Part shown: positions 28,674 to 38,412 of the stretch, one piece after another
Layout: the number at the start of each line of letters is the position of its first letter
Position numbering within the stretch: the first letter of the stretch is position 1
From: Methanomicrobia archaeon LH_S13
GTDB taxonomy: Archaea; Halobacteriota; Syntropharchaeia; Alkanophagales; Methanospirareceae
Length of the DNA stretch: 39,200 bases
Reading direction: 5' to 3'
Assembly (NCBI GenBank): GCA_023659785.1
Contig: JAGXOR010000001.1
Location: forward strand, 1-39,200
Program-made: the position numbers and the translations under genes
The notes under the pieces: generated by a model
Seen by the model: only the letters and a program-made list of their open reading frames with translations
What the model was told of the DNA's origin: nothing
The model's database searches: none

Positions 28674-29687
28674 ATGAAGAACCTCGAAGCCATTCTCGCG
28701 GGTGATAAAGGTTTGGGTTTGGGCTTGGGCTTAGGGCACGTATTACACTTGTATAATTCAAACGTAAACAAATATGCCGTTCAAATACCTTTCATTGCTT
28801 CCACATCCAAAAAAGAAAAGGTTATTTACGTGACTGCGGAGGAGGAGCTGATAAAAGAGGAGTTAGAAATAGAGAATTTAAATTTAAAGGTTGATATGGT
28901 TATATATTACCCGGAGGAGATGGGGAAGATATGCATGCATAATAAGGGGAGAATTATCGTAGACGTTTCTTCATTTGGTGATGCTTCGGTTATAGAAGAA
29001 GTGGAAGGAAAAAGGAGGGTTATAGGAAGAAAAACACTTTACAGTAGATATACCAATTACAAGCAAAGAGAAGTATATTTAAGCTCTATTTGCAATCAGT
29101 ACCCCAGTGCATATAGCATATTATGCAGTTATAACATGGATGAGCTGGAGCCAGAAATGAGTAACTCGCTGTTGAAATACCACGATAAGATAATTATGAG
29201 CACTGATGACAGCGATGTAGGCATGCCTTCATCTATACTGTTACAAACTACGAATAGTATTGCGGAGAAATATATGGTGCGATTTGTGAAGAATTATTTA
29301 GACATGATTGTGCTTGCATTGGTCTTAAAGAGAAAAATGTGCGGCACCGATATAATAAAAAGTATTCAAAAGAGTTTCGGGGTACTCCTGAGCACTGGAA
29401 CAGTATATCCACTTTTGCATGATTTGGAGGAAAAGGGACTATTAGACTGCGAATACGGTATAAGAAGGAGGTACAAAAAGAAGGTATATAAGCCAAAAGA
29501 TGAACAGCAGGTAAAGAATATCCTGATAGAGCACGTTCAATCGAATAACATTTTAAACAAATTCTTGCGGTCTTTTCCTCATGATTATATAATAGGGGGG
29601 AGGGAGCTGGACAAGGAGGAAACAAGAGATCACAGTAAAAAACCACGAGATTTCAAAAGAGACACACAAGAGATGCATCCCTACTAA
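28674..29687 (+). CDS. putative regulator: MEDS-like N-terminal sensory domain fused to PadR-type winged HTH
   Basis: 337 aa. HVLHLYNSNVNKYAVQIPFIASTSKKEKVIYV resembles the MEDS N-terminus. LDMIVLALVLKRKMCGTDIIKSIQKSFGVLLSTGTVYPLLHDLEEKGLL is PadR-like. The last ~15 codons run into 22-nt box copy 1. Confidence 0.5.
   Translation: MKNLEAILAGDKGLGLGLGLGHVLHLYNSNVNKYAVQIPFIASTSKKEKVIYVTAEEELIKEELEIENLNLKVDMVIYYPEEMGKICMHNKGRIIVDVSSFGDASVIEEVEGKRRVIGRKTLYSRYTNYKQREVYLSSICNQYPSAYSILCSYNMDELEPEMSNSLLKYHDKIIMSTDDSDVGMPSSILLQTTNSIAEKYMVRFVKNYLDMIVLALVLKRKMCGTDIIKSIQKSFGVLLSTGTVYPLLHDLEEKGLLDCEYGIRRRYKKKVYKPKDEQQVKNILIEHVQSNNILNKFLRSFPHDYIIGGRELDKEETRDHSKKPRDFKRDTQEMHPY
29639..29660 (+). promoter_or_regulatory. 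22-nt conserved box, copy 1 (AAAACCACGAGATTTCAAAAGA)
   Basis: 21/22 identical to copy 3 (36550-36571) and 20/22 to copy 2 (31137-31158). It lies in the 3' end of the regulator ORF. Confidence 0.5.
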
Positions 29688-29804: not shown

Positions 29805-30842
29805 ATGGAAGAGATTAATATCGCGTTCATCGGGAAAAAGGGAATGCCATTTCCGATAAGAAAGCATCCCGGAAGATACTTCTTCATCTCGGAAACCGAT
29901 TTAAAAAAGCTGACGGAGATAAACGAAGCGTGCAAGGAAAAGGGACTAAAGCACCTCAAAGAAATAAGGATAGTTGGTAGAGGAGGAGTATTGGGGAACA
30001 AGCCCTTTTTGCTAAGACGACCAGAAGGGGGTTTTCTCGAAGGTAGGTATGTTTGTATTCTTGTAGAGCATACGGTAGAGTTCGAAGAGGTGCGAAAAAG
30101 GTATGAAGGGTTAATAAAAGAAGAGAAAATAGCAAAGGAAAAGGAAAAGGCAGAAGAAAAGAAAGAGGAGGTAATAAGAAAAAGAGAGGAAGGGAAATAC
30201 GTTTACTGCGTGATAAAATCAGATGAAGAGCAGAGAAGTTTTGGTGATTTTGGGATAGAAGATACAGGAGAAGTTTATACCATTCCCTATAAGAAGTTCG
30301 CAGCGGTTGTGAGTGATTCCCCGATGAAGGAATATGAAGCGAGGGAAGAAAATGTGAAAGAGCACGAAGAAATTGTTAGGAAGATATTATTAGAGGGTCA
30401 CACGGTGCTGCCTGTTGCTTTTAATATGGTTTTTAAGGATAAACGGACGCTGCTTGTAACGATGAGCAAGGCGAGGAAGGGATTAAGAAAAGCTTATGAA
30501 ACAGTGGACAAAAAAGTAGAACTCGGAATTAAGGCTATTTTCACTAAAGAGGCGCTGAAAACCCTTGAAAAAAGCAGAAGCGAGTTAGGCCAGGACTTTG
30601 AATCTGACTTACTCGAAACAATAGATGGTAAATTCGCATCTTTAAAGAAGTTGGATTTGTTCAGTGACCGTCTGGCATTGAATATGACTTTTTTGGTTGA
30701 CCGGGACAAGATAGCGGAGATTTCAGAAGCAATTGAACCCCTGTATAATAAATACGATTCGTTAAAAGTCCAGTATAGCGGTCCCTGGGCACCCTATAAT
30801 TTTGTTAACATAAGGATATTAGGAAAAGGAGGAGGAAAATAA
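29805..30842 (+). CDS. GvpL/GvpF-family gas vesicle protein with ~130-aa uncharacterised N-terminal extension
   Basis: 345 aa. From KYVYCVIKSD onward it has the GvpL_GvpF pattern (YTIPYKKFAAVVSD, ...HEEIVRKILLEGHTVLPVAFNMVF, ...LNMTFLVDRDK, ...YSGPWAPYNF). Confidence 0.75.
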   Translation: MEEINIAFIGKKGMPFPIRKHPGRYFFISETDLKKLTEINEACKEKGLKHLKEIRIVGRGGVLGNKPFLLRRPEGGFLEGRYVCILVEHTVEFEEVRKRYEGLIKEEKIAKEKEKAEEKKEEVIRKREEGKYVYCVIKSDEEQRSFGDFGIEDTGEVYTIPYKKFAAVVSDSPMKEYEAREENVKEHEEIVRKILLEGHTVLPVAFNMVFKDKRTLLVTMSKARKGLRKAYETVDKKVELGIKAIFTKEALKTLEKSRSELGQDFESDLLETIDGKFASLKKLDLFSDRLALNMTFLVDRDKIAEISEAIEPLYNKYDSLKVQYSGPWAPYNFVNIRILGKGGGK

Positions 30843-31127
30843 ATGCCATTTATAATTGACGACTTATTTCTGCGGATGCTTGGGATTTCTATCCCCCCTT
30901 TCGATATGTTATGGTTGATGGAGCAAATAAGGGATTATGCTTATACAGAGATGTATGATACAGAGAAGATAAATAGCCAGCTAAAAGAGAACAGGCTGCT
31001 TTACGAATTTGATGAGATAACAAAAGAGGAGTATGAGAAAAGGAACGAGAAACTTAATCACAAATTGAAAATGGCAAACCACGTGAACCACGCAAATATG
31101 CGGGACAGAGTGAATGCCCTGAGATAA
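30843..31127 (+). CDS. gvpG: GvpG-like gas vesicle protein
   Basis: 94 aa. MPFIIDDLFLR...MYDTEKINSQLKENRLLYEFDEITKEEYEKRNEKL matches the GvpG pattern as remembered. It starts directly after the stop of the previous gene. Confidence 0.6.
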   Translation: MPFIIDDLFLRMLGISIPPFDMLWLMEQIRDYAYTEMYDTEKINSQLKENRLLYEFDEITKEEYEKRNEKLNHKLKMANHVNHANMRDRVNALR

Positions 31128-31177: not shown

Positions 31178-31390
31178 ATGAAAAAAGGAAGAAGGAGAGG
31201 AAAAGAAAAACGCCTTGTGCCAAGATCTTTAAAAACAATAGATGCATTACAGGAAAAGGGGACAGTGGTTGATTTCAAGTACTCAACCAATTTAATTTCC
31301 TTGATAAGAATGGACGTTGAGGGAAGAGCTGCGATTAAAGGTTATGATGCCGGTGTTGACGTTCATCCATTCAAACTATACAGGAGGTAA
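31178..31390 (+). CDS. highly divergent GvpA/J/M-family-like small protein with basic N-terminus
   Basis: 70 aa. SLKTIDALQEKGTVVDFKYSTNLISLIRMDVEGRAAIKGYD aligns by eye to the GvpA core LAEVLDRILDKGVVVD.WARVSLVGIE.LTVEARVVVASV. Confidence 0.45.
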   Translation: MKKGRRRGKEKRLVPRSLKTIDALQEKGTVVDFKYSTNLISLIRMDVEGRAAIKGYDAGVDVHPFKLYRR

Positions 31391-31394
31391 GAAC

Positions 31395-33383
31395 ATGAAC
31401 AAAGAGCCAGGCTTTTTCTCTGATGAATTAAACCTCATATTCTTCGGTGGGAAAGGAGGAGAGGGGAAGACGACATGTGCGGCTGCAACTGCGCTGCGTC
31501 TATCAGAAAGAGGGAGGAAAACGCTTATCCTCTCCACTGACCCAGCTCATTCACTTTCAGATAGTTTCGGCATTCACATAGGTAACAAAATCACGCCTCT
31601 AAAAGACAACCTGTATGGTCTGGAGATAGATTCGAGGGAATTGATAGAAGAGTTTATGAAAGAAAATGAAATTACAATTTCAAAGATAGTTGACAGAGGC
31701 ACATATCTTGATGCCGATGACATATTAAAAATGCTCTCCCTTTCCCTACCAGGTATGGACGAGTACATGGCGATATTAAAAATAAGGGAATTGATGAGAG
31801 AGGGGGAATACGATTTGTTCATTTCCGATACAGCACCAACTGGACACTCCATTCGTCTATTATTAACACCGGGATTAGCTGATGAATGGATTGGTTTCCT
31901 CGATAAGTTGGCAGAAAAACACAGGTATATAACGAGGACATTCAGGGGCAGATATGTAAAGGACGAAACGGACGCGTTCTTAGAAAAGATGCATAGAGAC
32001 TTGAGGATGGTGATGAAAGCTTTTACAGATGTGAAAACGGAATTTGTGCCCGTTACAATCCTGGAAGCGATGGGTGTAGAGGAAACCGCAGACCTGCTTT
32101 CTGCACTTCAAGACCTCAAAATAAATGTCAGAAGCATAGTAATTAATAGAGCAAATTTATCCCCCATAGAGAAGTGCGATTTATGCGCTCATAGAGTAAA
32201 AGACCAGGAAAGGTATGTCAGTGAAATATATGAAAAATGGGGGAGATATGACGTTATACAGGTGCCGCTGTTTCCTCACGAGATAAGAGGGTCAGAAAGG
32301 CTAAGCGAGTTCGGCGATGTATTGGCAGGAAAGCCTTATGAGTATAAGCCAAGTGCAGAGAAGAGACAGCGAAAAAAAAAAGCGAAATCGAGAATAAAGG
32401 ATTTGCTGGAGAAAGAACTGAAGGTGCTGATTATTGGCGGAAAGGGGGGAGTGGGAAAAACAACGGTAGCATCAGCATCGGGTTTGTACATTGCAAGAAG
32501 AAAGCCGGGAAAGAAGATACTGGTGGGCTCTACTGACCCGGCGCATTCATTATCCGACTCTTTTGACCTGCACATAGGTAATAAGGTTACCAAGATAGAA
32601 AACAACCTTTATGGTTTGGAAATAGATGCGGAAGAGGCGATGGCTGAATTTAGAGATAAATACACGACGGAGATAAAAGAAGCATTTGAAGGTTTAGCCC
32701 GCGATAGAAGAACTGCCATTGATTTGCCTTTTGATAGGGATATACTTCAACGTCTCAAGGAGCTTACTCCTCCTGGTTTAGATGAGATAATGGCACTCGC
32801 GAAGATAGTGGAATTGACGAAGAGTAGTGAGTACGATTTAATTATTTTAGATACCGCTCCAACAGGGCATACCATTAGATTGTTAGAGCTGCCGGATATA
32901 GCATTGGACTGGTTTGATGCTTTTATCAGGATAATACACAAATATAGAGAGATGGTTTCGCTGACAGACACCTTAAGATTGGTATTAGAAAAGAAGAGGG
33001 ATACAGAAGAGACGCTAAAAATCCTGAGAAGCGAAGCCCAAACGGAATTTGTTGGTGTTACAATTCCAGAGGCGATGAGTGTATTTGAGACTGAACACCT
33101 CATATCAGAGATAAAAAAAGCTGAGATTTGTTTAGAGCACGTTATTATCAACAGTATTATTCCGGCTCCTGCGGCGAAATGTAGTTTCTGTATATCGCAA
33201 CTAAAAAATCAGAGGGAGTATATAAAAGAAATAGGAAAACTTGGCTACAAAATCACCGAGATACCTTTGTTCGAGCATGAAATCCGAGGTATAGATATGC
33301 TTGCTGACTTTGGCGAAGTGATATATGGAGAAGGGAGGAGTCATAAAACGGGGATTGGCAATAAATTATTTGGTTTTTTTTAA
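31395..33383 (+). CDS. tandem (pseudo-dimeric) ArsA/Get3(TRC40)-family ATPase
   Basis: Start at ATG 31395, preceded by AGGAGGT; the track ORF starts at 31317. Two P-loops (GGKGGEGKTT, GGKGGVGKTT). Two DTAPTGH(S/T)IRLL switch motifs. Two CxxC motifs (KCDLC at 32175-32186, KCSFC at 33180-33191). Confidence 0.85.
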   Translation: MNKEPGFFSDELNLIFFGGKGGEGKTTCAAATALRLSERGRKTLILSTDPAHSLSDSFGIHIGNKITPLKDNLYGLEIDSRELIEEFMKENEITISKIVDRGTYLDADDILKMLSLSLPGMDEYMAILKIRELMREGEYDLFISDTAPTGHSIRLLLTPGLADEWIGFLDKLAEKHRYITRTFRGRYVKDETDAFLEKMHRDLRMVMKAFTDVKTEFVPVTILEAMGVEETADLLSALQDLKINVRSIVINRANLSPIEKCDLCAHRVKDQERYVSEIYEKWGRYDVIQVPLFPHEIRGSERLSEFGDVLAGKPYEYKPSAEKRQRKKKAKSRIKDLLEKELKVLIIGGKGGVGKTTVASASGLYIARRKPGKKILVGSTDPAHSLSDSFDLHIGNKVTKIENNLYGLEIDAEEAMAEFRDKYTTEIKEAFEGLARDRRTAIDLPFDRDILQRLKELTPPGLDEIMALAKIVELTKSSEYDLIILDTAPTGHTIRLLELPDIALDWFDAFIRIIHKYREMVSLTDTLRLVLEKKRDTEETLKILRSEAQTEFVGVTIPEAMSVFETEHLISEIKKAEICLEHVIINSIIPAPAAKCSFCISQLKNQREYIKEIGKLGYKITEIPLFEHEIRGIDMLADFGEVIYGEGRSHKTGIGNKLFGFF

Positions 33384-33405: not shown

Positions 33406-33624
33406 ATGGGAAGAAAGAAGTATTGGCAAAGAAGCATGGAAATTTACTTCAGGGAGCAGAATAGAAAGCGTGATCCTTTAAAGCTTCGTGAGGAAATGGA
33501 AAAGGGAACTAAAGAAATCAGTGAAAAAATGAGTTCTTATGTGGAAGAGAAAAGTGAAGAGCGAGATGACTATGCAAAAAGATTCCAGGAAGATGTGAAA
33601 AAGATAAAGAATAGACTGAGATAA
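33406..33624 (+). CDS. small charged coiled-coil-like protein (72 aa)
   Basis: ATG preceded by a purine-rich RBS. N-terminal KKYWQR resembles KEHWQR of ORF 34694. No family recognised. Confidence 0.5.
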   Translation: MGRKKYWQRSMEIYFREQNRKRDPLKLREEMEKGTKEISEKMSSYVEEKSEERDDYAKRFQEDVKKIKNRLR

Positions 33625-33631
33625 AAAAGGG

Positions 33632-33641
33632 TTTTATATCA
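33632..33641 (+). promoter_or_regulatory. putative TATA box (TTTTATATCA) of an internal promoter
   Basis: Lies in the only long (112 nt) intergenic gap of this sub-cluster and carries the same 10-mer as 29723-29732. Confidence 0.25.
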
Positions 33642-33736
33642 AATCCCGCTATAATCGAAATCCTTTTGAATGCAGACTTCTAACATAAAATTTGAAATTA
33701 AAAAAATAAAAGAGTTTTTAACGAGGTGTGAAAAAA

Positions 33737-33961
33737 ATGGTTACACGAGAAGCAAAAAGTAGGGGAAAGTTGGTAGCGGAATTGGATGATTCAACGTATA
33801 GGGCGATAGCAGGTAAGGTACGTAGTCACTTATCTCCTCGTGTGTATATCTCACCTGAGAGGACAAGTGTAGAAGGTAAGAAAGTAGTCAGGCTGTGGAG
33901 CAGATACCCGGAAGCTGCGAAAAGAGCGGTTCAAAAGGTATTGGCTGAGAGGCGTAAATAA
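33737..33961 (+). CDS. small basic hypothetical protein (74 aa)
   Basis: ATG 33737 sits 8 nt after GAGGTG; the track uses GTG 33728. No family recognised. Confidence 0.5.
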   Translation: MVTREAKSRGKLVAELDDSTYRAIAGKVRSHLSPRVYISPERTSVEGKKVVRLWSRYPEAAKRAVQKVLAERRK

Positions 33962-33978
33962 AAAAGGAGGTAATAAAA

Positions 33979-34188
33979 ATGACTTCGGTAAGGAGTTATA
34001 GTATGGAGAAGGATAGAGCGATAAAAGAGATACAAGCAGGAATTGAAGAGGTTGAAGAAAGAATGGCGGCTGGTATAAGTGAGCTACAAGCAGAAAGAGA
34101 AGCGGTTGAAAGAAGAGTTGCTGCGGATACTACGGAGAAGCAGAAAGATTCAGATAGGTTTGCAGAAGAGTTTTGGGAAGGAGAATGA
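33979..34188 (+). CDS. small acidic coiled-coil-like protein (69 aa)
   Basis: AAGGAGGT RBS upstream. E/A/R-rich heptad-like sequence. Confidence 0.5.
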   Translation: MTSVRSYSMEKDRAIKEIQAGIEEVEERMAAGISELQAEREAVERRVAADTTEKQKDSDRFAEEFWEGE

Positions 34189-34217
34189 AAGGTTATAAAA
34201 AATAGGGGGTGATAAGA

Positions 34218-34430
34218 ATGGTTACTATGCGACCGAATAGTGGAACAACACCAGGGAAGGATAAAGCAGCAAGAGACAGGCAAGTGAAGTTTTTAAGATA
34301 TCTCAGGACGAGAACACAACACTTATCTCTCACATTACGTCCACGCGGCGTTCGACAACTCTGGATGGTGGAGGAACAGAGATGGCGTGGCAGGGAGTGG
34401 TGGAAGAAAGATAAAGATTGGTGGAGGTAA
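34218..34430 (+). CDS. small basic protein with Trp/Arg-rich C-terminus (70 aa, ...EEQRWRGREWWKKDKDWWR)
   Basis: ATG 34218 follows GGGGGTG; GTG 34209 is an alternative. Confidence 0.45.
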   Translation: MVTMRPNSGTTPGKDKAARDRQVKFLRYLRTRTQHLSLTLRPRGVRQLWMVEEQRWRGREWWKKDKDWWR

Positions 34431-34435
34431 ATGAC

Positions 34436-34687
34436 ATGACGACTTCAAGTAGTATTTCAAGACGCTTAGAAGGGCTGGGCAACGAAAAAGAGAGGGTAAA
34501 AAGAGAGACAGAAAGGATTGATAGACAGAAGAAGGCGATACTCGAAAGAAGGCAGAAAGCATTGGAACGGGGTGAAACATTGACCGGGATGGATGATATG
34601 GAGAGAAAAAAGAGAGCAACGCGGTCGAGATGGGATAGAAAATGGAATTATAGAAGATGGAAAATTGATGCGAAAAAGAGGTCTTAA
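34436..34687 (+). CDS. small basic protein, paralog A (83 aa)
   Basis: ATG is 6 nt after the previous stop, preceded by GGTGGAGGT. It shares ERI.RQK....ERR.....RGE..TG.D..ERKK.AT..RWD.KW..R..K.DA with ORF 34694. Confidence 0.55.
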   Translation: MTTSSSISRRLEGLGNEKERVKRETERIDRQKKAILERRQKALERGETLTGMDDMERKKRATRSRWDRKWNYRRWKIDAKKRS

Positions 34688-34693
34688 AGCAAA

Positions 34694-34960
34694 ATGACAG
34701 GGAAAGAGCATTGGCAAAGAGATCTGGCGTATTTGAAAAGAAGCATGCTGGGTTCAGGGCAGTTGAGAAGGATTAAAGCACAGGAAGAACGGATAAGCAG
34801 GCAGAAGGAAGCTGCGCATGAAAGAAGACGAGCAGCTATAAAAAGGGGTGAAGTAATAACCGGGATAGACAAGGTGGAAAGGAAAAAGTTAGCAACGCAG
34901 CATAGATGGGATGGAAAATGGGCTCGCAGGAAAATGAAATTGGACGCAAGAAGGAGGTAG
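34694..34960 (+). CDS. small basic protein, paralog B (88 aa)
   Basis: Tandem paralog of 34436..34687 (see motif above). Confidence 0.55.
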   Translation: MTGKEHWQRDLAYLKRSMLGSGQLRRIKAQEERISRQKEAAHERRRAAIKRGEVITGIDKVERKKLATQHRWDGKWARRKMKLDARRR

Positions 34961-34966
34961 GTAAAA

Positions 34967-35329
34967 ATGGAAAAAATCGGTGCGGAAATCGAAGATGCGA
35001 GAATACAAAGTGTATATGATATATGGGGAAAGAAGCCGCCGGGAATTAGATTCTGCGATACTGATGTTTTAACCATAGCTGCAAAGACAGATGAGAGTGA
35101 GGAAGTAAAAGACACTTTCTTTTTCTCTCTAAAAGCAGATGGAACATTTGCTGTAAATACCGCGCACAGAATAAGCCGTTTAAGAAGAAAAAGACTGGCT
35201 GAATTCCTTAGATACTACAATATCGCAGATAAAGTGGAGGAATACAACTTAAGAAAGGGAATAGAGGAATGGAAAGGGAAGAAGATAGAAGTGGTTAAAA
35301 GCAACGGAAGGTATATTTTTGTTCAATAA
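34967..35329 (+). CDS. hypothetical protein (120 aa)
   Basis: AAGGAGGTAGGT RBS. No family recognised. Confidence 0.5.
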   Translation: MEKIGAEIEDARIQSVYDIWGKKPPGIRFCDTDVLTIAAKTDESEEVKDTFFFSLKADGTFAVNTAHRISRLRRKRLAEFLRYYNIADKVEEYNLRKGIEEWKGKKIEVVKSNGRYIFVQ

Positions 35330-35343
35330 AAAGGAGGTAAAAA

Positions 35344-35466
35344 ATGACACCGGAAAAATCGAAAGTAAGATTGGCGGGAATGGAAAGAAAGATGGAAGAA
35401 AGGATAAAAAAGAGCGATTTAAGATGGAAAAGAAGAGAGAGGGCTGGAAAAGCAGCTAAAGCGTAA
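35344..35466 (+). CDS. very small basic ORF (40 aa, MTPEKSKVRLAGMERKMEERIKKSDLRWKRRERAGKAAKA)
   Basis: Translated by hand. AAAGGAGGT RBS 6 nt upstream. Its RWKRR motif echoes the neighbouring small proteins. Confidence 0.4.
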   Translation: MTPEKSKVRLAGMERKMEERIKKSDLRWKRRERAGKAAKA

Positions 35467-35488
35467 GCTTAAAAGAGGAAGAAAATAT

Positions 35489-35519
35489 CCTGTTCTTTTC
35501 TCTCTATTTTTCTTTTTTT
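35489..35519 (+). terminator. oligo-T/pyrimidine-rich tract, candidate archaeal terminator, followed by the TATA-like GATAAATAT
   Basis: CCTGTTCTTTTCTCTCTATTTTTCTTTTTTT directly follows the last small ORF. The TATA-like element lies about 20 nt before ATG 35543, so a near-leaderless transcript is possible. Confidence 0.35.
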
Positions 35520-35542
35520 GATAAATATGATTGTATTCAAAA

Positions 35543-36574
35543 ATGGTAGAAAATAAAGGTAAATACGTCTATGGAATATTAAACAACGGTGAGGGAAGGA
35601 GTTTTGGAGAAATCGGGATTAACAAAGAAGAGGCTTACTGCATCAATTTTAAGGATATTTCCGCCGTGGTTGGCGATTCTGCACTTAAGACATACGAAGT
35701 GACGAGGGAAAAATTGCTTGCTCATGAACAGGTCATCCAAGAGGTGATGAAAGAGCATACTATCATCCCAATGACGTTTGGAACCGTTGCTAAGGACGAG
35801 AAAGATGTCGAGAATATGCTTGAGCGGATGTACGCGGAATTCAAGCAGGTGCTGAAGAGAATAGAGAATAAATTGCAGATAGATGTGAAAGCGATTTGGA
35901 ATAAAGATGTAATTTACACGGGTATTTTGAGAGAAGATGAAGGGATAAGGAGGTTAAGTGAAAAGGCATCAAAAAAACCGGCTGATAAGACTTATGATGA
36001 AAAGGTGGAATTAGGTAAGAAAGTGATGTCAGCCGTGGATAAGAGGAAAGAGAGGTATATAAAAGAGATAACTGAGGCTTTGAGCACTTATATAGAAGAT
36101 TCACAGCAGAATAAACTCAAAGATGACAAAATGATAATGAACACTTCTTTTCTCGTGGCTAAAAGCAAAGAGCAAGAGATTTATAAAAAATTGGACGAGT
36201 TGGATGAGAAATATGGAGAGGACGTGCAGGTTATAGCAGTTGGACCTTTGCCTCCTTATAATTTCTCGCATATAGAAATAAAGCCTATGGATTTCGATAC
36301 GATTGATTCTGCCCGTAGAACATTAGGCTTGGGTAAGGGGGTGACGATGTCAGAAATTGATGATGCATATAACCGCCTGGCATTGCAATTCCATCCTGAC
36401 CGAAATCCTGATGCGTCAGCAAAAGAGAAGTTCAAGGAGATAGAGCAAGCTTATTCTACGCTGCGAGATTATTGCTCACGATATGTGTATTCATTCAAGA
36501 AGAAGGATGTGGAGAAGACTGTGATGGTGTATATAGCTAGCGGAGGTAAAAAACCACGAGATTTCACAAGATAG
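35543..36574 (+). CDS. GvpL/GvpF-family protein fused to a C-terminal J-domain (DnaJ-type, HPD motif)
   Basis: 343 aa. GKYVYGILN...FKDISAVVGDS...HEQVIQEVMKEHTIIPMTFGTV...MNTSFLVAKSK...GPLPPYNF is GvpL_GvpF-like. Positions 36302-36469 encode the J-domain MSEIDDAYNRLALQFHPDRNPDA.AKEKFKEIEQAYSTL (HPD at 36392-36400). The last codons run into 22-nt box copy 3. Confidence 0.8.
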   Translation: MVENKGKYVYGILNNGEGRSFGEIGINKEEAYCINFKDISAVVGDSALKTYEVTREKLLAHEQVIQEVMKEHTIIPMTFGTVAKDEKDVENMLERMYAEFKQVLKRIENKLQIDVKAIWNKDVIYTGILREDEGIRRLSEKASKKPADKTYDEKVELGKKVMSAVDKRKERYIKEITEALSTYIEDSQQNKLKDDKMIMNTSFLVAKSKEQEIYKKLDELDEKYGEDVQVIAVGPLPPYNFSHIEIKPMDFDTIDSARRTLGLGKGVTMSEIDDAYNRLALQFHPDRNPDASAKEKFKEIEQAYSTLRDYCSRYVYSFKKKDVEKTVMVYIASGGKKPRDFTR

Positions 36575-36621: not shown

Positions 36622-38412
36622 ATGACAAAAATATCAGCAAGTGGAATCGTAGGAATAGATTTAGGAACAACGAATTCAGCAGCGGCGGTGATGATAGGTG
36701 GTGAGCCGGTAATAATACCAAGTGAGGAGGGACTTACACCTTACGGTAAGATGTTTCCTTCTGTGGTGGCATTCACGGACGAAAATGAAAGATTGGTTGG
36801 TGAGTTAGCAAGGATGCACGCGGTTGAAAATCCTGATAGGACAGTGAGCGGGATAAAGAGGAAAATGGGCACTTCGCACAAGGTAAAAATAGGTCCGAGG
36901 GAATATACACCGCAGGAAATCTCTGCTATGATACTTCAAAAGATAAAGATGGATGCCGAGGAATATTTGGGAACGGAAGTAGAAAAGGCGGTTATCACCG
37001 TGCCCGCGTATTTTAACGATAATCAAAGGATAGCGACGAAAGAAGCGGGAAGAATTGCAGGTTTAGAAGTAGTCAGGCTGATAAACGAACCTACTGCCGC
37101 TTCTTTAGCTTATGGATTGGATAAAGAGAAGAAAGAGGAATTAAAGATTGCAGTGCTTGATTTGGGTGCAGGGACGTTTGACGTTACGATATTAAAGCTC
37201 AGAGAAGAGCTGTTCAAGGTCATCTCCACCAGTGGAGATACTCAATTAGGCGGGCTGGACATGGACGAGAAGCTCGTTGAATTCATGCTTAAGGAGTTGG
37301 AAAAGGAATACCGGCTTGACATAAGAAGAGATAAAAAGGCAATGCAAAAATTACGGTCTGCGACAGAGAGAGCGAAGATAGATTTATCTACTGCAAGTTC
37401 AACGAATATAGGCATATCATTTCCATTTGTTGAGTTGGGGTTAAATCAGAATATGAACCTGGATTTAAGCAGGGAAGAAATGGAAGAGTTAATCAAGCCC
37501 GTAATTCAGAGGTTGGATGAACCGATAAATCAAGCGTTAGAAGATGCGAAATTAGCTCCTGAGCACATAGATAAGGTTGTATTGGTAGGAGGACCAACGA
37601 GGATGCCTGTAGTGCGGGAAAAAATCGAGCGATTCTTTGGTAAGGAAGCGGAGAGAGGGATAGACCCGATGGAATGTGTGGCAAAAGGGGCTGCAATTCA
37701 AGCTGGTGTTCTCGCAGGTGAGATAGATGATGTGCTTCTGCTGGATGTAATTCCTCTTTCCTTAGGTATAGAGACCTCAGGCGGGATTTTTACGCCGATA
37801 ATGGAGAGGAATACGACAATACCGGTAGATGAGAGCGAGATATTTACCACCTCAAAGGATAACCAGATGAGGATGGCAATACACGTGCTACAAGGAGAAA
37901 GAGCAATGGCTGCGGATAACACAACACTCGGCTTGTTTTCCTTTGATGATATTCCAGTAGCACCAAAAAGGACTCCTCTAATTGATGTCGCTTTTGATAT
38001 AGATGCCGATGGCATTTTAAACGTGAGTGCCGAGGATTTAGACACGAGTAAGCGCAGGGAGATAAGGATCGAAGGGTCAACAAAACTTTCAGAAGAAGAA
38101 ATAGGAGGGATGATAAAAAAAGCGAAGAGACATGAAAAGGAGGATAAGAAAAGGAGAGAGAGTATAGAGACGCTAAATCAAGCAAAGGCGATAATAGATG
38201 CAGCAGAGCTTGCAATAAAAGAAATGTACGAAGATGAAGGAGTGAATGAACAAGGAAAGGGAGAGGTGAAAAAGGGTGTTTTACAATTAAAAGAAGGAAT
38301 GAAAGGTGAAGTTGAAGGCGATATTGACATTCAGAAGATTAAAAAAGATGCTGAGGAGTTGAAAAGAATAATGCAGAAGATGTTGATTGATAAAGGAGAA
38401 GGAGAAGAATAA
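36622..38412 (+). CDS. Hsp70/DnaK-family chaperone (596 aa), no adjacent grpE or canonical dnaJ
   Basis: GIDLGTTNSAAAV, VITVPAYFNDNQR, LINEPTAASLAYG and DLGAGTFDV, plus a substrate-binding beta domain and a short helical lid. Confidence 0.9.
   Translation: MTKISASGIVGIDLGTTNSAAAVMIGGEPVIIPSEEGLTPYGKMFPSVVAFTDENERLVGELARMHAVENPDRTVSGIKRKMGTSHKVKIGPREYTPQEISAMILQKIKMDAEEYLGTEVEKAVITVPAYFNDNQRIATKEAGRIAGLEVVRLINEPTAASLAYGLDKEKKEELKIAVLDLGAGTFDVTILKLREELFKVISTSGDTQLGGLDMDEKLVEFMLKELEKEYRLDIRRDKKAMQKLRSATERAKIDLSTASSTNIGISFPFVELGLNQNMNLDLSREEMEELIKPVIQRLDEPINQALEDAKLAPEHIDKVVLVGGPTRMPVVREKIERFFGKEAERGIDPMECVAKGAAIQAGVLAGEIDDVLLLDVIPLSLGIETSGGIFTPIMERNTTIPVDESEIFTTSKDNQMRMAIHVLQGERAMAADNTTLGLFSFDDIPVAPKRTPLIDVAFDIDADGILNVSAEDLDTSKRREIRIEGSTKLSEEEIGGMIKKAKRHEKEDKKRRESIETLNQAKAIIDAAELAIKEMYEDEGVNEQGKGEVKKGVLQLKEGMKGEVEGDIDIQKIKKDAEELKRIMQKMLIDKGEGEE

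Follow-up and report, generated by a model that had tools for sequence, protein, structure and literature searches.

What does a two-domain ATPase of the Get3/ArsA family do among gas-vesicle (gvp) genes in an archaeon? The question is raised by a 39,200-nucleotide stretch of DNA (the window) from Methanomicrobia archaeon LH_S13 (assembly GCA_023659785.1, contig JAGXOR010000001.1, positions 1 to 39,200), in which a gene at 31395..33383 encodes such a protein. The reading favoured here, to which we give a probability of about 0.6, is that this ATPase is a fused Get3-like pseudo-dimer specific to gvp clusters, putatively using ATP and a Zn clamp to chaperone or target hydrophobic Gvp proteins. 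A first-pass annotation of the same DNA had proposed a fused Get3-like chaperone dedicated to a small GvpA-like protein encoded just upstream, perhaps replacing GvpN. The gene and its motifs are the following:

31395..33383, + strand: tandem (pseudo-dimeric) Get3/ArsA-family ATPase of a gas-vesicle-linked subfamily, 662 amino acids (aa), supported by PF02374 (twice), TIGR00345, AlphaFold2 (AF2), Foldseek and a tree
31382..31387, + strand: AGGAGG ribosome-binding site, 7 nucleotides (nt) before the ATPase ATG, overlapping the last codons of the upstream open reading frame (ORF)
31446..31472, + strand: deviant Walker A GGKGGEGKT of the N half, aa 18-26 (sequence)
31827..31847, + strand: switch II DTAPTGH of the N half, aa 145-151 (sequence, conservation in 94 homologues)
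32175..32186, + strand: CxxC of the N half (C261, C264) within KCDLC, aa 260-264 (sequence, multiple alignment)
32436..32462, + strand: deviant Walker A GGKGGVGKT of the C half, aa 348-356 (sequence, conservation in 94 homologues)
32850..32870, + strand: switch II DTAPTGH of the C half, aa 486-492 (sequence, conservation in 94 homologues)
33180..33191, + strand: CxxC of the C half (C596, C599) within KCSFC, aa 595-599 (sequence, pairwise alignment)

The reading frame is uninterrupted over its 662 aa, and its two halves are 42% identical (blastp, E 3e-69). KGGxGKT, the switch I sequence DPAHS and DTAPTGH are found in both halves and are invariant or nearly so across 94 homologues, in which G19, K20, G21, G24, K25 and T27 never vary. 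The switch II stretches read DTAPTGHSIRLL from aa 145 and DTAPTGHTIRLL from aa 486. The complete set of cysteines consists of C28, C261, C264, C579, C596 and C599. The four belonging to the CxxC motifs show no variation among 26 diverse homologues and are conserved at 90% or more in the 94, where C264 is invariant and C261 reaches at least 90%. Thus, what the first-pass annotation had read here stands: a protein of two homologous halves, each with a Walker A, a DTAPTGH(S/T)IRLL and a KCxxC motif, the latter exactly at 32175-32186 and 33180-33191, and an ATG (31395) located 4 nt past the TAA (31388-31390) of the upstream ORF.

The protein is a real fused member of the Get3/ArsA family, with Get3-type CxxC motifs and intact catalytic motifs in both halves. 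PF02374 (ArsA_ATPase) matches two stretches of it (E 7.4e-149, 495 bits for a cut-off of 24.3), and TIGR00345 (GET3_arsA_TRC40) reaches 476.2 bits for a cut-off of 135. By sequence, the best solved structure is Chlamydomonas ArsA1 (5zme, E 1.2e-72, about 30% identity over the full length), other matches being the Get3 of M. thermautotrophicus (MtGet3; 3zq6, E 1.3e-52) and E. coli ArsA (E 6.3e-34). The ArsA1 of Chlamydomonas reinhardtii (CrArsA1; PDB 5zme/5zmf), a fused Get3 that binds chloroplast tail-anchored proteins, is like the window ATPase a fused pseudo-dimer without metalloid cysteines, whereas it lacks CxxC motifs, with no cysteine at either position, and is unlinked to gvp genes.

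Structure prediction agrees with this assignment. An AF2 model computed from the 94-sequence alignment is a confident two-lobed pseudo-dimer, with a predicted local distance difference test score (pLDDT) of 85.4 and a predicted template modelling (TM) score (pTM) of 0.83. When this model is submitted to Foldseek, closed ArsA structures come top at full length (TM 0.77), CrArsA1 also matches at full length, and each half taken separately finds MtGet3 as the best match (TM 0.84, 36% identity). The helical segment following switch II, in which AF2 predicts long helices, counts 70 residues in the N half and 64 in the C half, for 75-78 in Get3 and CrArsA1 and 45-57 in ArsA.

The CxxC motifs themselves are those of Get3. 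Indeed, KCSFC falls on the CEFC of 3zq6 in a HMMER pairwise alignment, and in a multiple alignment the motifs of both halves stand in the CxxC column of MtGet3 and of the Get3 proteins of Methanobrevibacter and Heimdallarchaeota. The archaeal proteins M. thermautotrophicus 3zq6 and M. jannaschii 3ug6 share with the window ATPase this exact CxxC alignment, the PGxDE sequence and switches I and II; unlike it, they are single-domain homodimers or tetramers and are not found in gvp clusters. The Get3 dimer pivots on a Zn held by both CxxC motifs and closes an ATP-dependent hydrophobic groove (PMC6593721). By analogy, the paired motifs of the two halves of the window ATPase most likely bind a single Zn where these halves meet, in the manner of the inter-subunit Zn of Get3, the N-half motif being probably half of an intramolecular site.

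Could the protein nevertheless be the ATPase of an arsenite or antimonite pump? Its two-domain ArsA_ATPase architecture would suit ArsA, homologues are named "arsenite-transporting ATPase" in some databases, the top full-length Foldseek matches are ArsA structures, and the E. coli and plasmid proteins (1f48; L099-L101) have the same fused two-domain fold. This possibility can already be regarded as effectively refuted. In E. coli ArsA, metalloids are bound by the cysteines C113, C172 and C422. Three bona fide arsA genes (L099-L101), taken from ars operons with arsD, arsB/acr3 and arsR, were used as controls and aligned per half. In both halves of true ArsA, a cysteine lies within S-x-C-T-x-E, whereas the window ATPase displays PGMDE and PGLDE at this place, the PGxDE of Get3 type; the arsenic site is lost. 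Identity with ArsA amounts to only 23-24%, and ArsA differs further by its ArsD/ArsB partners, its shorter post-switch II segment, and a clade and a fusion of its own. The scores obtained with the ArsA equivalog models remain far under their cut-offs (TIGR04291, 243.4 bits for 650; NF041417, 314.4 for 800).

The genetic context points in the same direction. No match to ArsB (PF02040) or Acr3 (TIGR00832) was found in the source metagenome-assembled genome (MAG; 1.54 Mb, 85% complete, fragmented), arsD and arsR not being searched genome-wide. In the related gvp-linked loci, labelled by means of seed sequences, no ArsD, ArsB, Acr3 or ArsR-type regulator was detected, apart from a weakly ArsR-labelled ORF of 426 aa in L041; the same labelling does pick up the partner genes in the control ars operons. 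The Get3-like fused pseudo-dimer of the first-pass annotation, as opposed to an arsenic pump, is therefore upheld by the PGxDE sequences, by the missing ArsB/Acr3 and by a position in the tree outside bona fide ArsA.

This tree was built from half-domains (152 rows; IQ-TREE quick search, LG+G4, support by the Shimodaira-Hasegawa approximate likelihood ratio test (SH-aLRT), no bootstrap). It places the window ATPase in a gvp-linked clade of 119 rows (SH-aLRT 97), apart from archaeal Get3 and ArsA, two of the comparison groups that had been suggested. Outside this clade are found bona fide ArsA, archaeal and Asgard Get3, Chlamydomonas ArsA1, paired single-domain proteins and a type with an ArsA_HSP20 tail. 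Its members include gvp-linked proteins of Nostoc, Dolichospermum, acidobacteria and myxobacteria. Of the 119 rows, 116 had their genomic context scored, and 101 of these are gvp-linked, the remainder being mainly cyanobacterial tandem proteins. Within the clade, the N halves are monophyletic (99) and so are the C halves (99); the tandem form therefore has a single ancient origin by duplication and fusion. Sister to the tandem forms (99) are the archaeal single-domain proteins linked to gvp genes. Separate fusions of their own are displayed by ArsA (99-100) and by ArsA1 (100), and since the halves of CrArsA1 group together and with Get3 of the Asgard/eukaryote type, the fusion in the latter was independent.

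The link with gas vesicles extends well beyond the window. It was surveyed in 80 loci from named genomes, the ORFs of which were labelled by phmmer with Pfam-verified seeds rather than with curated models. At least two kinds of gvp genes accompany the ATPase in 43 of the 51 loci with relatives of tandem size, so that the co-occurrence with gvp genes in other genomes, proposed as a check by the first-pass annotation, is conserved. Three close relatives (72-82% identity) share the same gene order, and distant tandem homologues (45-50% identity; Thermoplasmatota, Methanocellales, Zixibacteria) stand directly after GvpL/F-GvpG or GvpO, in gvp clusters carrying GvpF-DnaJ, Hsp70, Hsp20, CDC48, GvpA/J and GvpK. 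The order GvpL/F-GvpG-ATPase recurs in most loci, and linkage of the subfamily to gvp genes is kept across more than 15 phyla. Single-domain relatives reside in gvp clusters in 16 cases out of 36, and their order in Chlorobi, Bacteroidota and Pirellulales is Hsp20-ATPase-CDC48. As for the cysteine motifs, two CxxC are present in 29 of the 43 gvp-linked tandem loci and none in 9, mostly from cyanobacteria.

A cyanobacterial tandem clade (L037, L046, L048, L065) is devoid of both CxxC motifs and adjoins a gene for a CDC48-like double AAA+ protein even when no gvp gene lies within 10 kb, which suggests a pair of ATPases able to travel without gvp genes.

In the window, the ATPase gene belongs to a cluster with the following neighbours:

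28674..29687, + strand: MEDS-PadR-type regulator at the head of the cluster (PF03551, E 6.3e-9; MEDS weak)
29805..30842, + strand: GvpL/F with an N-terminal extension, abutting GvpG (PF06386, E 4.4e-39)
30843..31127, + strand: GvpG (PF05120, E 2.7e-15)
31178..31390, + strand: orf70, basic, 70 aa, clade-specific, of unproven likeness to GvpA (16 homologues)
35531..36574, + strand: GvpF/L fused to a J-domain (PF06386, E 5.5e-66; PF00226, E 5e-16)
36622..38412, + strand: Hsp70/DnaK (TIGR02350, 726 bits)

The gene order runs from the MEDS-PadR regulator through GvpL/F, GvpG, orf70 and the ATPase to small charged ORFs, the GvpF-J-domain fusion, Hsp70 and an Hsp20 fragment. The position of the regulator is kept in L011-L013, L015 and L017. 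The small charged ORFs that follow the ATPase and precede GvpF-DnaJ/Hsp70 (33406-35500 in the window) are likewise seen in L012 and L013. Two other contigs of the MAG add to this set: C240 carries two PF00741 GvpA/J-type genes, GvpK, two further GvpL/F and Hsp20-like genes, and C131 encodes a bona fide GvpN (343.9 bits for a cut-off of 266.8) adjoining GvpO. As GvpN is encoded in the same genome, the ATPase is not its replacement, contrary to what had been suggested from the window; GvpN is moreover present in 18 of the 43 gvp-linked tandem loci. The genome also encodes McrA, and gas-vesicle proteins have been reported in the proteome of ANME-1, according to a citation in PMC4335971.

Does the ATPase, then, chaperone specifically the 70-aa protein whose ORF ends 4 nt before it, as the first-pass annotation proposed? 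The two genes are tightly coupled by this short gap and a common ribosome-binding-site region, and the pair is kept in L011-L013, where orf70 always directly precedes the ATPase. orf70 is a real, conserved gene: a word-based search returned 16 homologues, 72-100% identical, all from the same narrow clade. It is this restriction that makes a dedicated chaperone very unlikely. Being confined to the narrow clade of the window, orf70 cannot be the conserved partner of a subfamily that occurs in bacteria as well as archaea and elsewhere has GvpG or GvpO at the same place. Indeed, the gene directly upstream of the ATPase in the 51 tandem loci is GvpG in 26, GvpO in 3, GvpL/F in 3 and orf70 in 3, the latter in the window's own clade only. 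In addition, orf70 is the least hydrophobic of the small proteins tested, with a maximum Kyte-Doolittle hydropathy (KD) of 0.59.

Nor could a GvpA (alpha-beta-beta-alpha) fold be demonstrated for this protein. orf70 matches no Pfam or NCBIfam model, hmmscan remaining blank even at E<=10, and a genome-wide PF00741 search misses it even at E<=1. When it was compared by hhalign with five family profiles built here, the 113-sequence GvpA alignment gave a weak local match of 15 columns (probability 4.8%, E 0.008), in the right register ("ktidalqekgtvvdf" on "dvLDRvLdKGvVI"), and the GvpO, GvpG, GvpK and Hsp20 profiles gave worse ones. An AF2 model from a shallow alignment was unusable (pLDDT 43). 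The identification of orf70 as GvpA, GvpO, GvpG or GvpK is accordingly not upheld; an adaptor or a client restricted to its lineage is a possible role.

If the ATPase works as favoured here, as a Get3-like chaperone or targeting factor for hydrophobic Gvp proteins, a single intramolecular Zn would clamp its two halves via the CxxC pair, a client would be enclosed by the two helical sub-domains once ATP is bound at both P-loops, and this client would be freed by hydrolysis. Candidate clients are the aggregation-prone hydrophobic shell proteins of GvpA/J/M type, or else GvpG or GvpK by way of their hydrophobic N-terminal helices. The ATPase would keep them soluble and pass them to the assembly machinery for hand-over to the shell, presumably in cooperation with the GvpL/F-GvpG pair encoded upstream and with the Hsp70/J-domain, Hsp20 and GvpN systems of the cluster.

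Several observations weigh against this reading. A hydropathy scan of the cluster proteins reveals no tail anchor of transmembrane grade, the maximum KD over 17 residues being 1.9, for GvpJ and GvpK, and a tail-anchored client within the cluster was rejected on this basis. In the N half, aa 175-202 hold a charged motif, KHRY...GRYxKDExDxF...D (K175-H-R177-Y...K-D190-E-x-D193-x-F195...D202), which is near-invariant among the 94 homologues and occupies the region where Get3 carries the variable, hydrophobic TRC40 insert. Such a motif is more in keeping with a specific protein-protein interface than with an unspecific hydrophobic groove, and it may be a partner interface specific to the subfamily. 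Since 9 of the 43 gvp-linked tandem relatives lack any CxxC, the subfamily does not depend on the Zn clamp. Most gvp clusters manage without such an ATPase, which is missing from 41 of the 50 GvpL/F-positive genomes sampled in the phylum. Finally, the ATPase is the only full-length ArsA-family gene detected in the 85%-complete MAG, so that, from this genome alone, a housekeeping role is possible.

The first two of these points lend themselves to another mechanism, in which the ATPase would be no holdase and would act as a nucleotide-dependent switch or scaffold on a GvpL/F-GvpG nucleation complex, timing or regulating the initiation of the shell in the manner of the SIMIBI proteins MinD and NifH. 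The GvpL/F-GvpG-ATPase order, which is the most conserved feature of the neighbourhood, is in line with such a role, as are the charged motif in place of the TRC40 insert and a cluster encoding no transmembrane-grade client. However, the closest characterised relatives, Get3 and CrArsA1, are chaperones that bind clients, and the helical sub-domains forming the groove are kept at nearly the length they have in Get3. A switch or scaffold is thus judged rather unlikely.

The last point recalls a general housekeeping Get3 that would target tail-anchored membrane proteins and have gvp neighbours incidentally; the preserved Get3-type CxxC and catalytic motifs would suit this role as well. The distribution of the tandem copies makes it quite improbable. 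In a family sample of 41 genomes (40 relatives plus the source genome; 5 GvpL/F-positive, 36 negative), a tandem copy is found in 2 of the 5 positive genomes (G000 and G003) and in none of the 36 negative ones (Fisher p 0.012). In a phylum sample of 401 genomes (50 GvpL/F-positive, 351 negative), strong matches to the window ATPase occur in 9 of the 50 positive genomes, always on the contig carrying GvpL/F, versus 2 of the 351 negative ones, one of these matches being a fragment at a contig edge (Fisher p 1.7e-7). As the tandem copies track GvpL/F in the sampled genomes, the ATPase is to be seen as an accessory, cluster-dedicated component and not as the general Get3. The linkage across phyla described above speaks likewise against incidental neighbours, and the paralogue widespread in the family, common in relatives without gvp genes, is another protein, single-domain, of about 400 aa, with an ArsA_HSP20-like tail.

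Three types of ArsA/Get3 paralogues coexist in this archaeal family, and the relative G003 has all three, a further point against the tandem form as the housekeeping copy. The first type (L102, L103, L108) is the protein of about 400 aa, the ArsA_HSP20 tail of which is weakly matched; it has no CxxC and a degenerate switch II, DTVPSGE. The second (L104:1759-2787, L106:9370-10398, L107:8767-9783), of about 340 aa, is single-domain with one CxxC and forms part of a classic gvp cluster. The tandem form (L105:7531-9576) makes up the third.

From the favoured chaperone reading, a more specific scenario can be derived, which is possible yet doubtful at this stage. The gvp-linked clade might represent a Get3 pathway redirected to a non-membrane target, GvpA/J/M subunits being caught in the ATP-closed groove and delivered to the shell growing at the gas-water interface. 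GvpL/F-GvpG might then serve as receptor or release factor, like Get1/2, and the archaeal single-domain gvp-linked forms might correspond to the state before fusion.

How the extremely hydrophobic GvpA-type subunits stay soluble and join the growing shell is an open problem, which matters for the engineering of acoustic reporter genes. A dedicated Get3-like ATPase, conserved in a substantial proportion of the gvp clusters outside model organisms, is a candidate for this step of GvpA solubility or addition. The subfamily spans both domains of life, derives from one ancient fusion and occurs alongside GvpN instead of replacing it. Natural comparisons are possible within a single archaeal family that has gvp-linked versions of both kinds, single-domain and tandem.

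The linkage itself has been known for some time, and published knowledge of it is unchanged by the window ATPase. Two-domain ArsA homologues were described in gvp operons of cyanobacteria, Chlorobi, Bacteroidetes, an acidobacterium and a deltaproteobacterium, and a role in gas-vesicle biogenesis was proposed for them, in bacteria only (Castillo & Saier 2010, PMC2963123). Clusters 4 and 6 of this study (Nostoc/Anabaena, Pelodictyon, Polaribacter, an acidobacterium) have the same two-domain architecture as the window ATPase and reside inside gvp clusters with GvpL/F, GvpG, GvpK, GvpJ/M and Hsp20, no ars genes being nearby; the cyanobacterial gvp-linked proteins of this type fall in the same clade of our tree. 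The differences are that their set is bacterial, whereas the window ATPase comes from an Mcr-encoding archaeon, that the window cluster also includes the GvpF-J-domain fusion, Hsp70 and the MEDS-PadR regulator, and that the cyanobacterial gvp-linked members have no CxxC, whereas the window ATPase has two.

Bacterial tandem Get3 homologues with a TRC40 insert and CxxC motifs have also been reported from Myxococcales and some Proteobacteria, as unique proteins the function of which was called unclear; gas vesicles are unmentioned, and archaeal Get3 is listed as single-domain only (Farkas et al. 2019, PMC6593721). These homologues and the window ATPase are both tandem with a CxxC per half, and myxobacterial and acidobacterial tandem members fall in the clade of the latter. 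Its insert region is nevertheless shorter than that of Get3 (70/64 versus 75-78 residues) and carries the conserved charged motif. A literature search found no publication linking "gas vesicle" with Get3, and under other ArsA names Castillo & Saier 2010 alone makes a link to gas vesicles, the Nodularia and Chloroploca genome papers mentioning ArsA and gas vesicles separately only. Thus, the gvp gene linkage (2010) and the tandem-plus-CxxC class (2019) are already known. The novelty is limited to an archaeal tandem member, the single-fusion topology, the coexistence with GvpN and the three paralogue types in one archaeal family.

Some minor observations concern the related loci and the shell proteins. 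Locus L012 (DYFG01000021.1) is titled Nitrosotalea sp., yet its cluster and that of the Mcr-encoding source archaeon share about 81% identity, and the contig is probably mis-binned or mislabelled. A phylum relative (G091:C20:10584-12542) carries, in a gvp cluster, a 49%-identical tandem homologue with one in-frame TGA, which a pseudogene, a sequencing error or recoding could explain. A canonical short GvpA was not found in the source MAG. The two PF00741 GvpA/J-type proteins encoded on C240 (45-419 and 427-1518; L010) possess zinc-ribbon-like C-terminal tails, CPxCG...CxxCG, which are unusual for the GvpA family, and the longer one (363 aa) gives weak GRAM/Vps36-like matches too. In the relative G003 (L105, G003:C294), a canonical GvpA of 73 aa, GvpN and GvpO come after the tandem ATPase, within about 2 kb of it.

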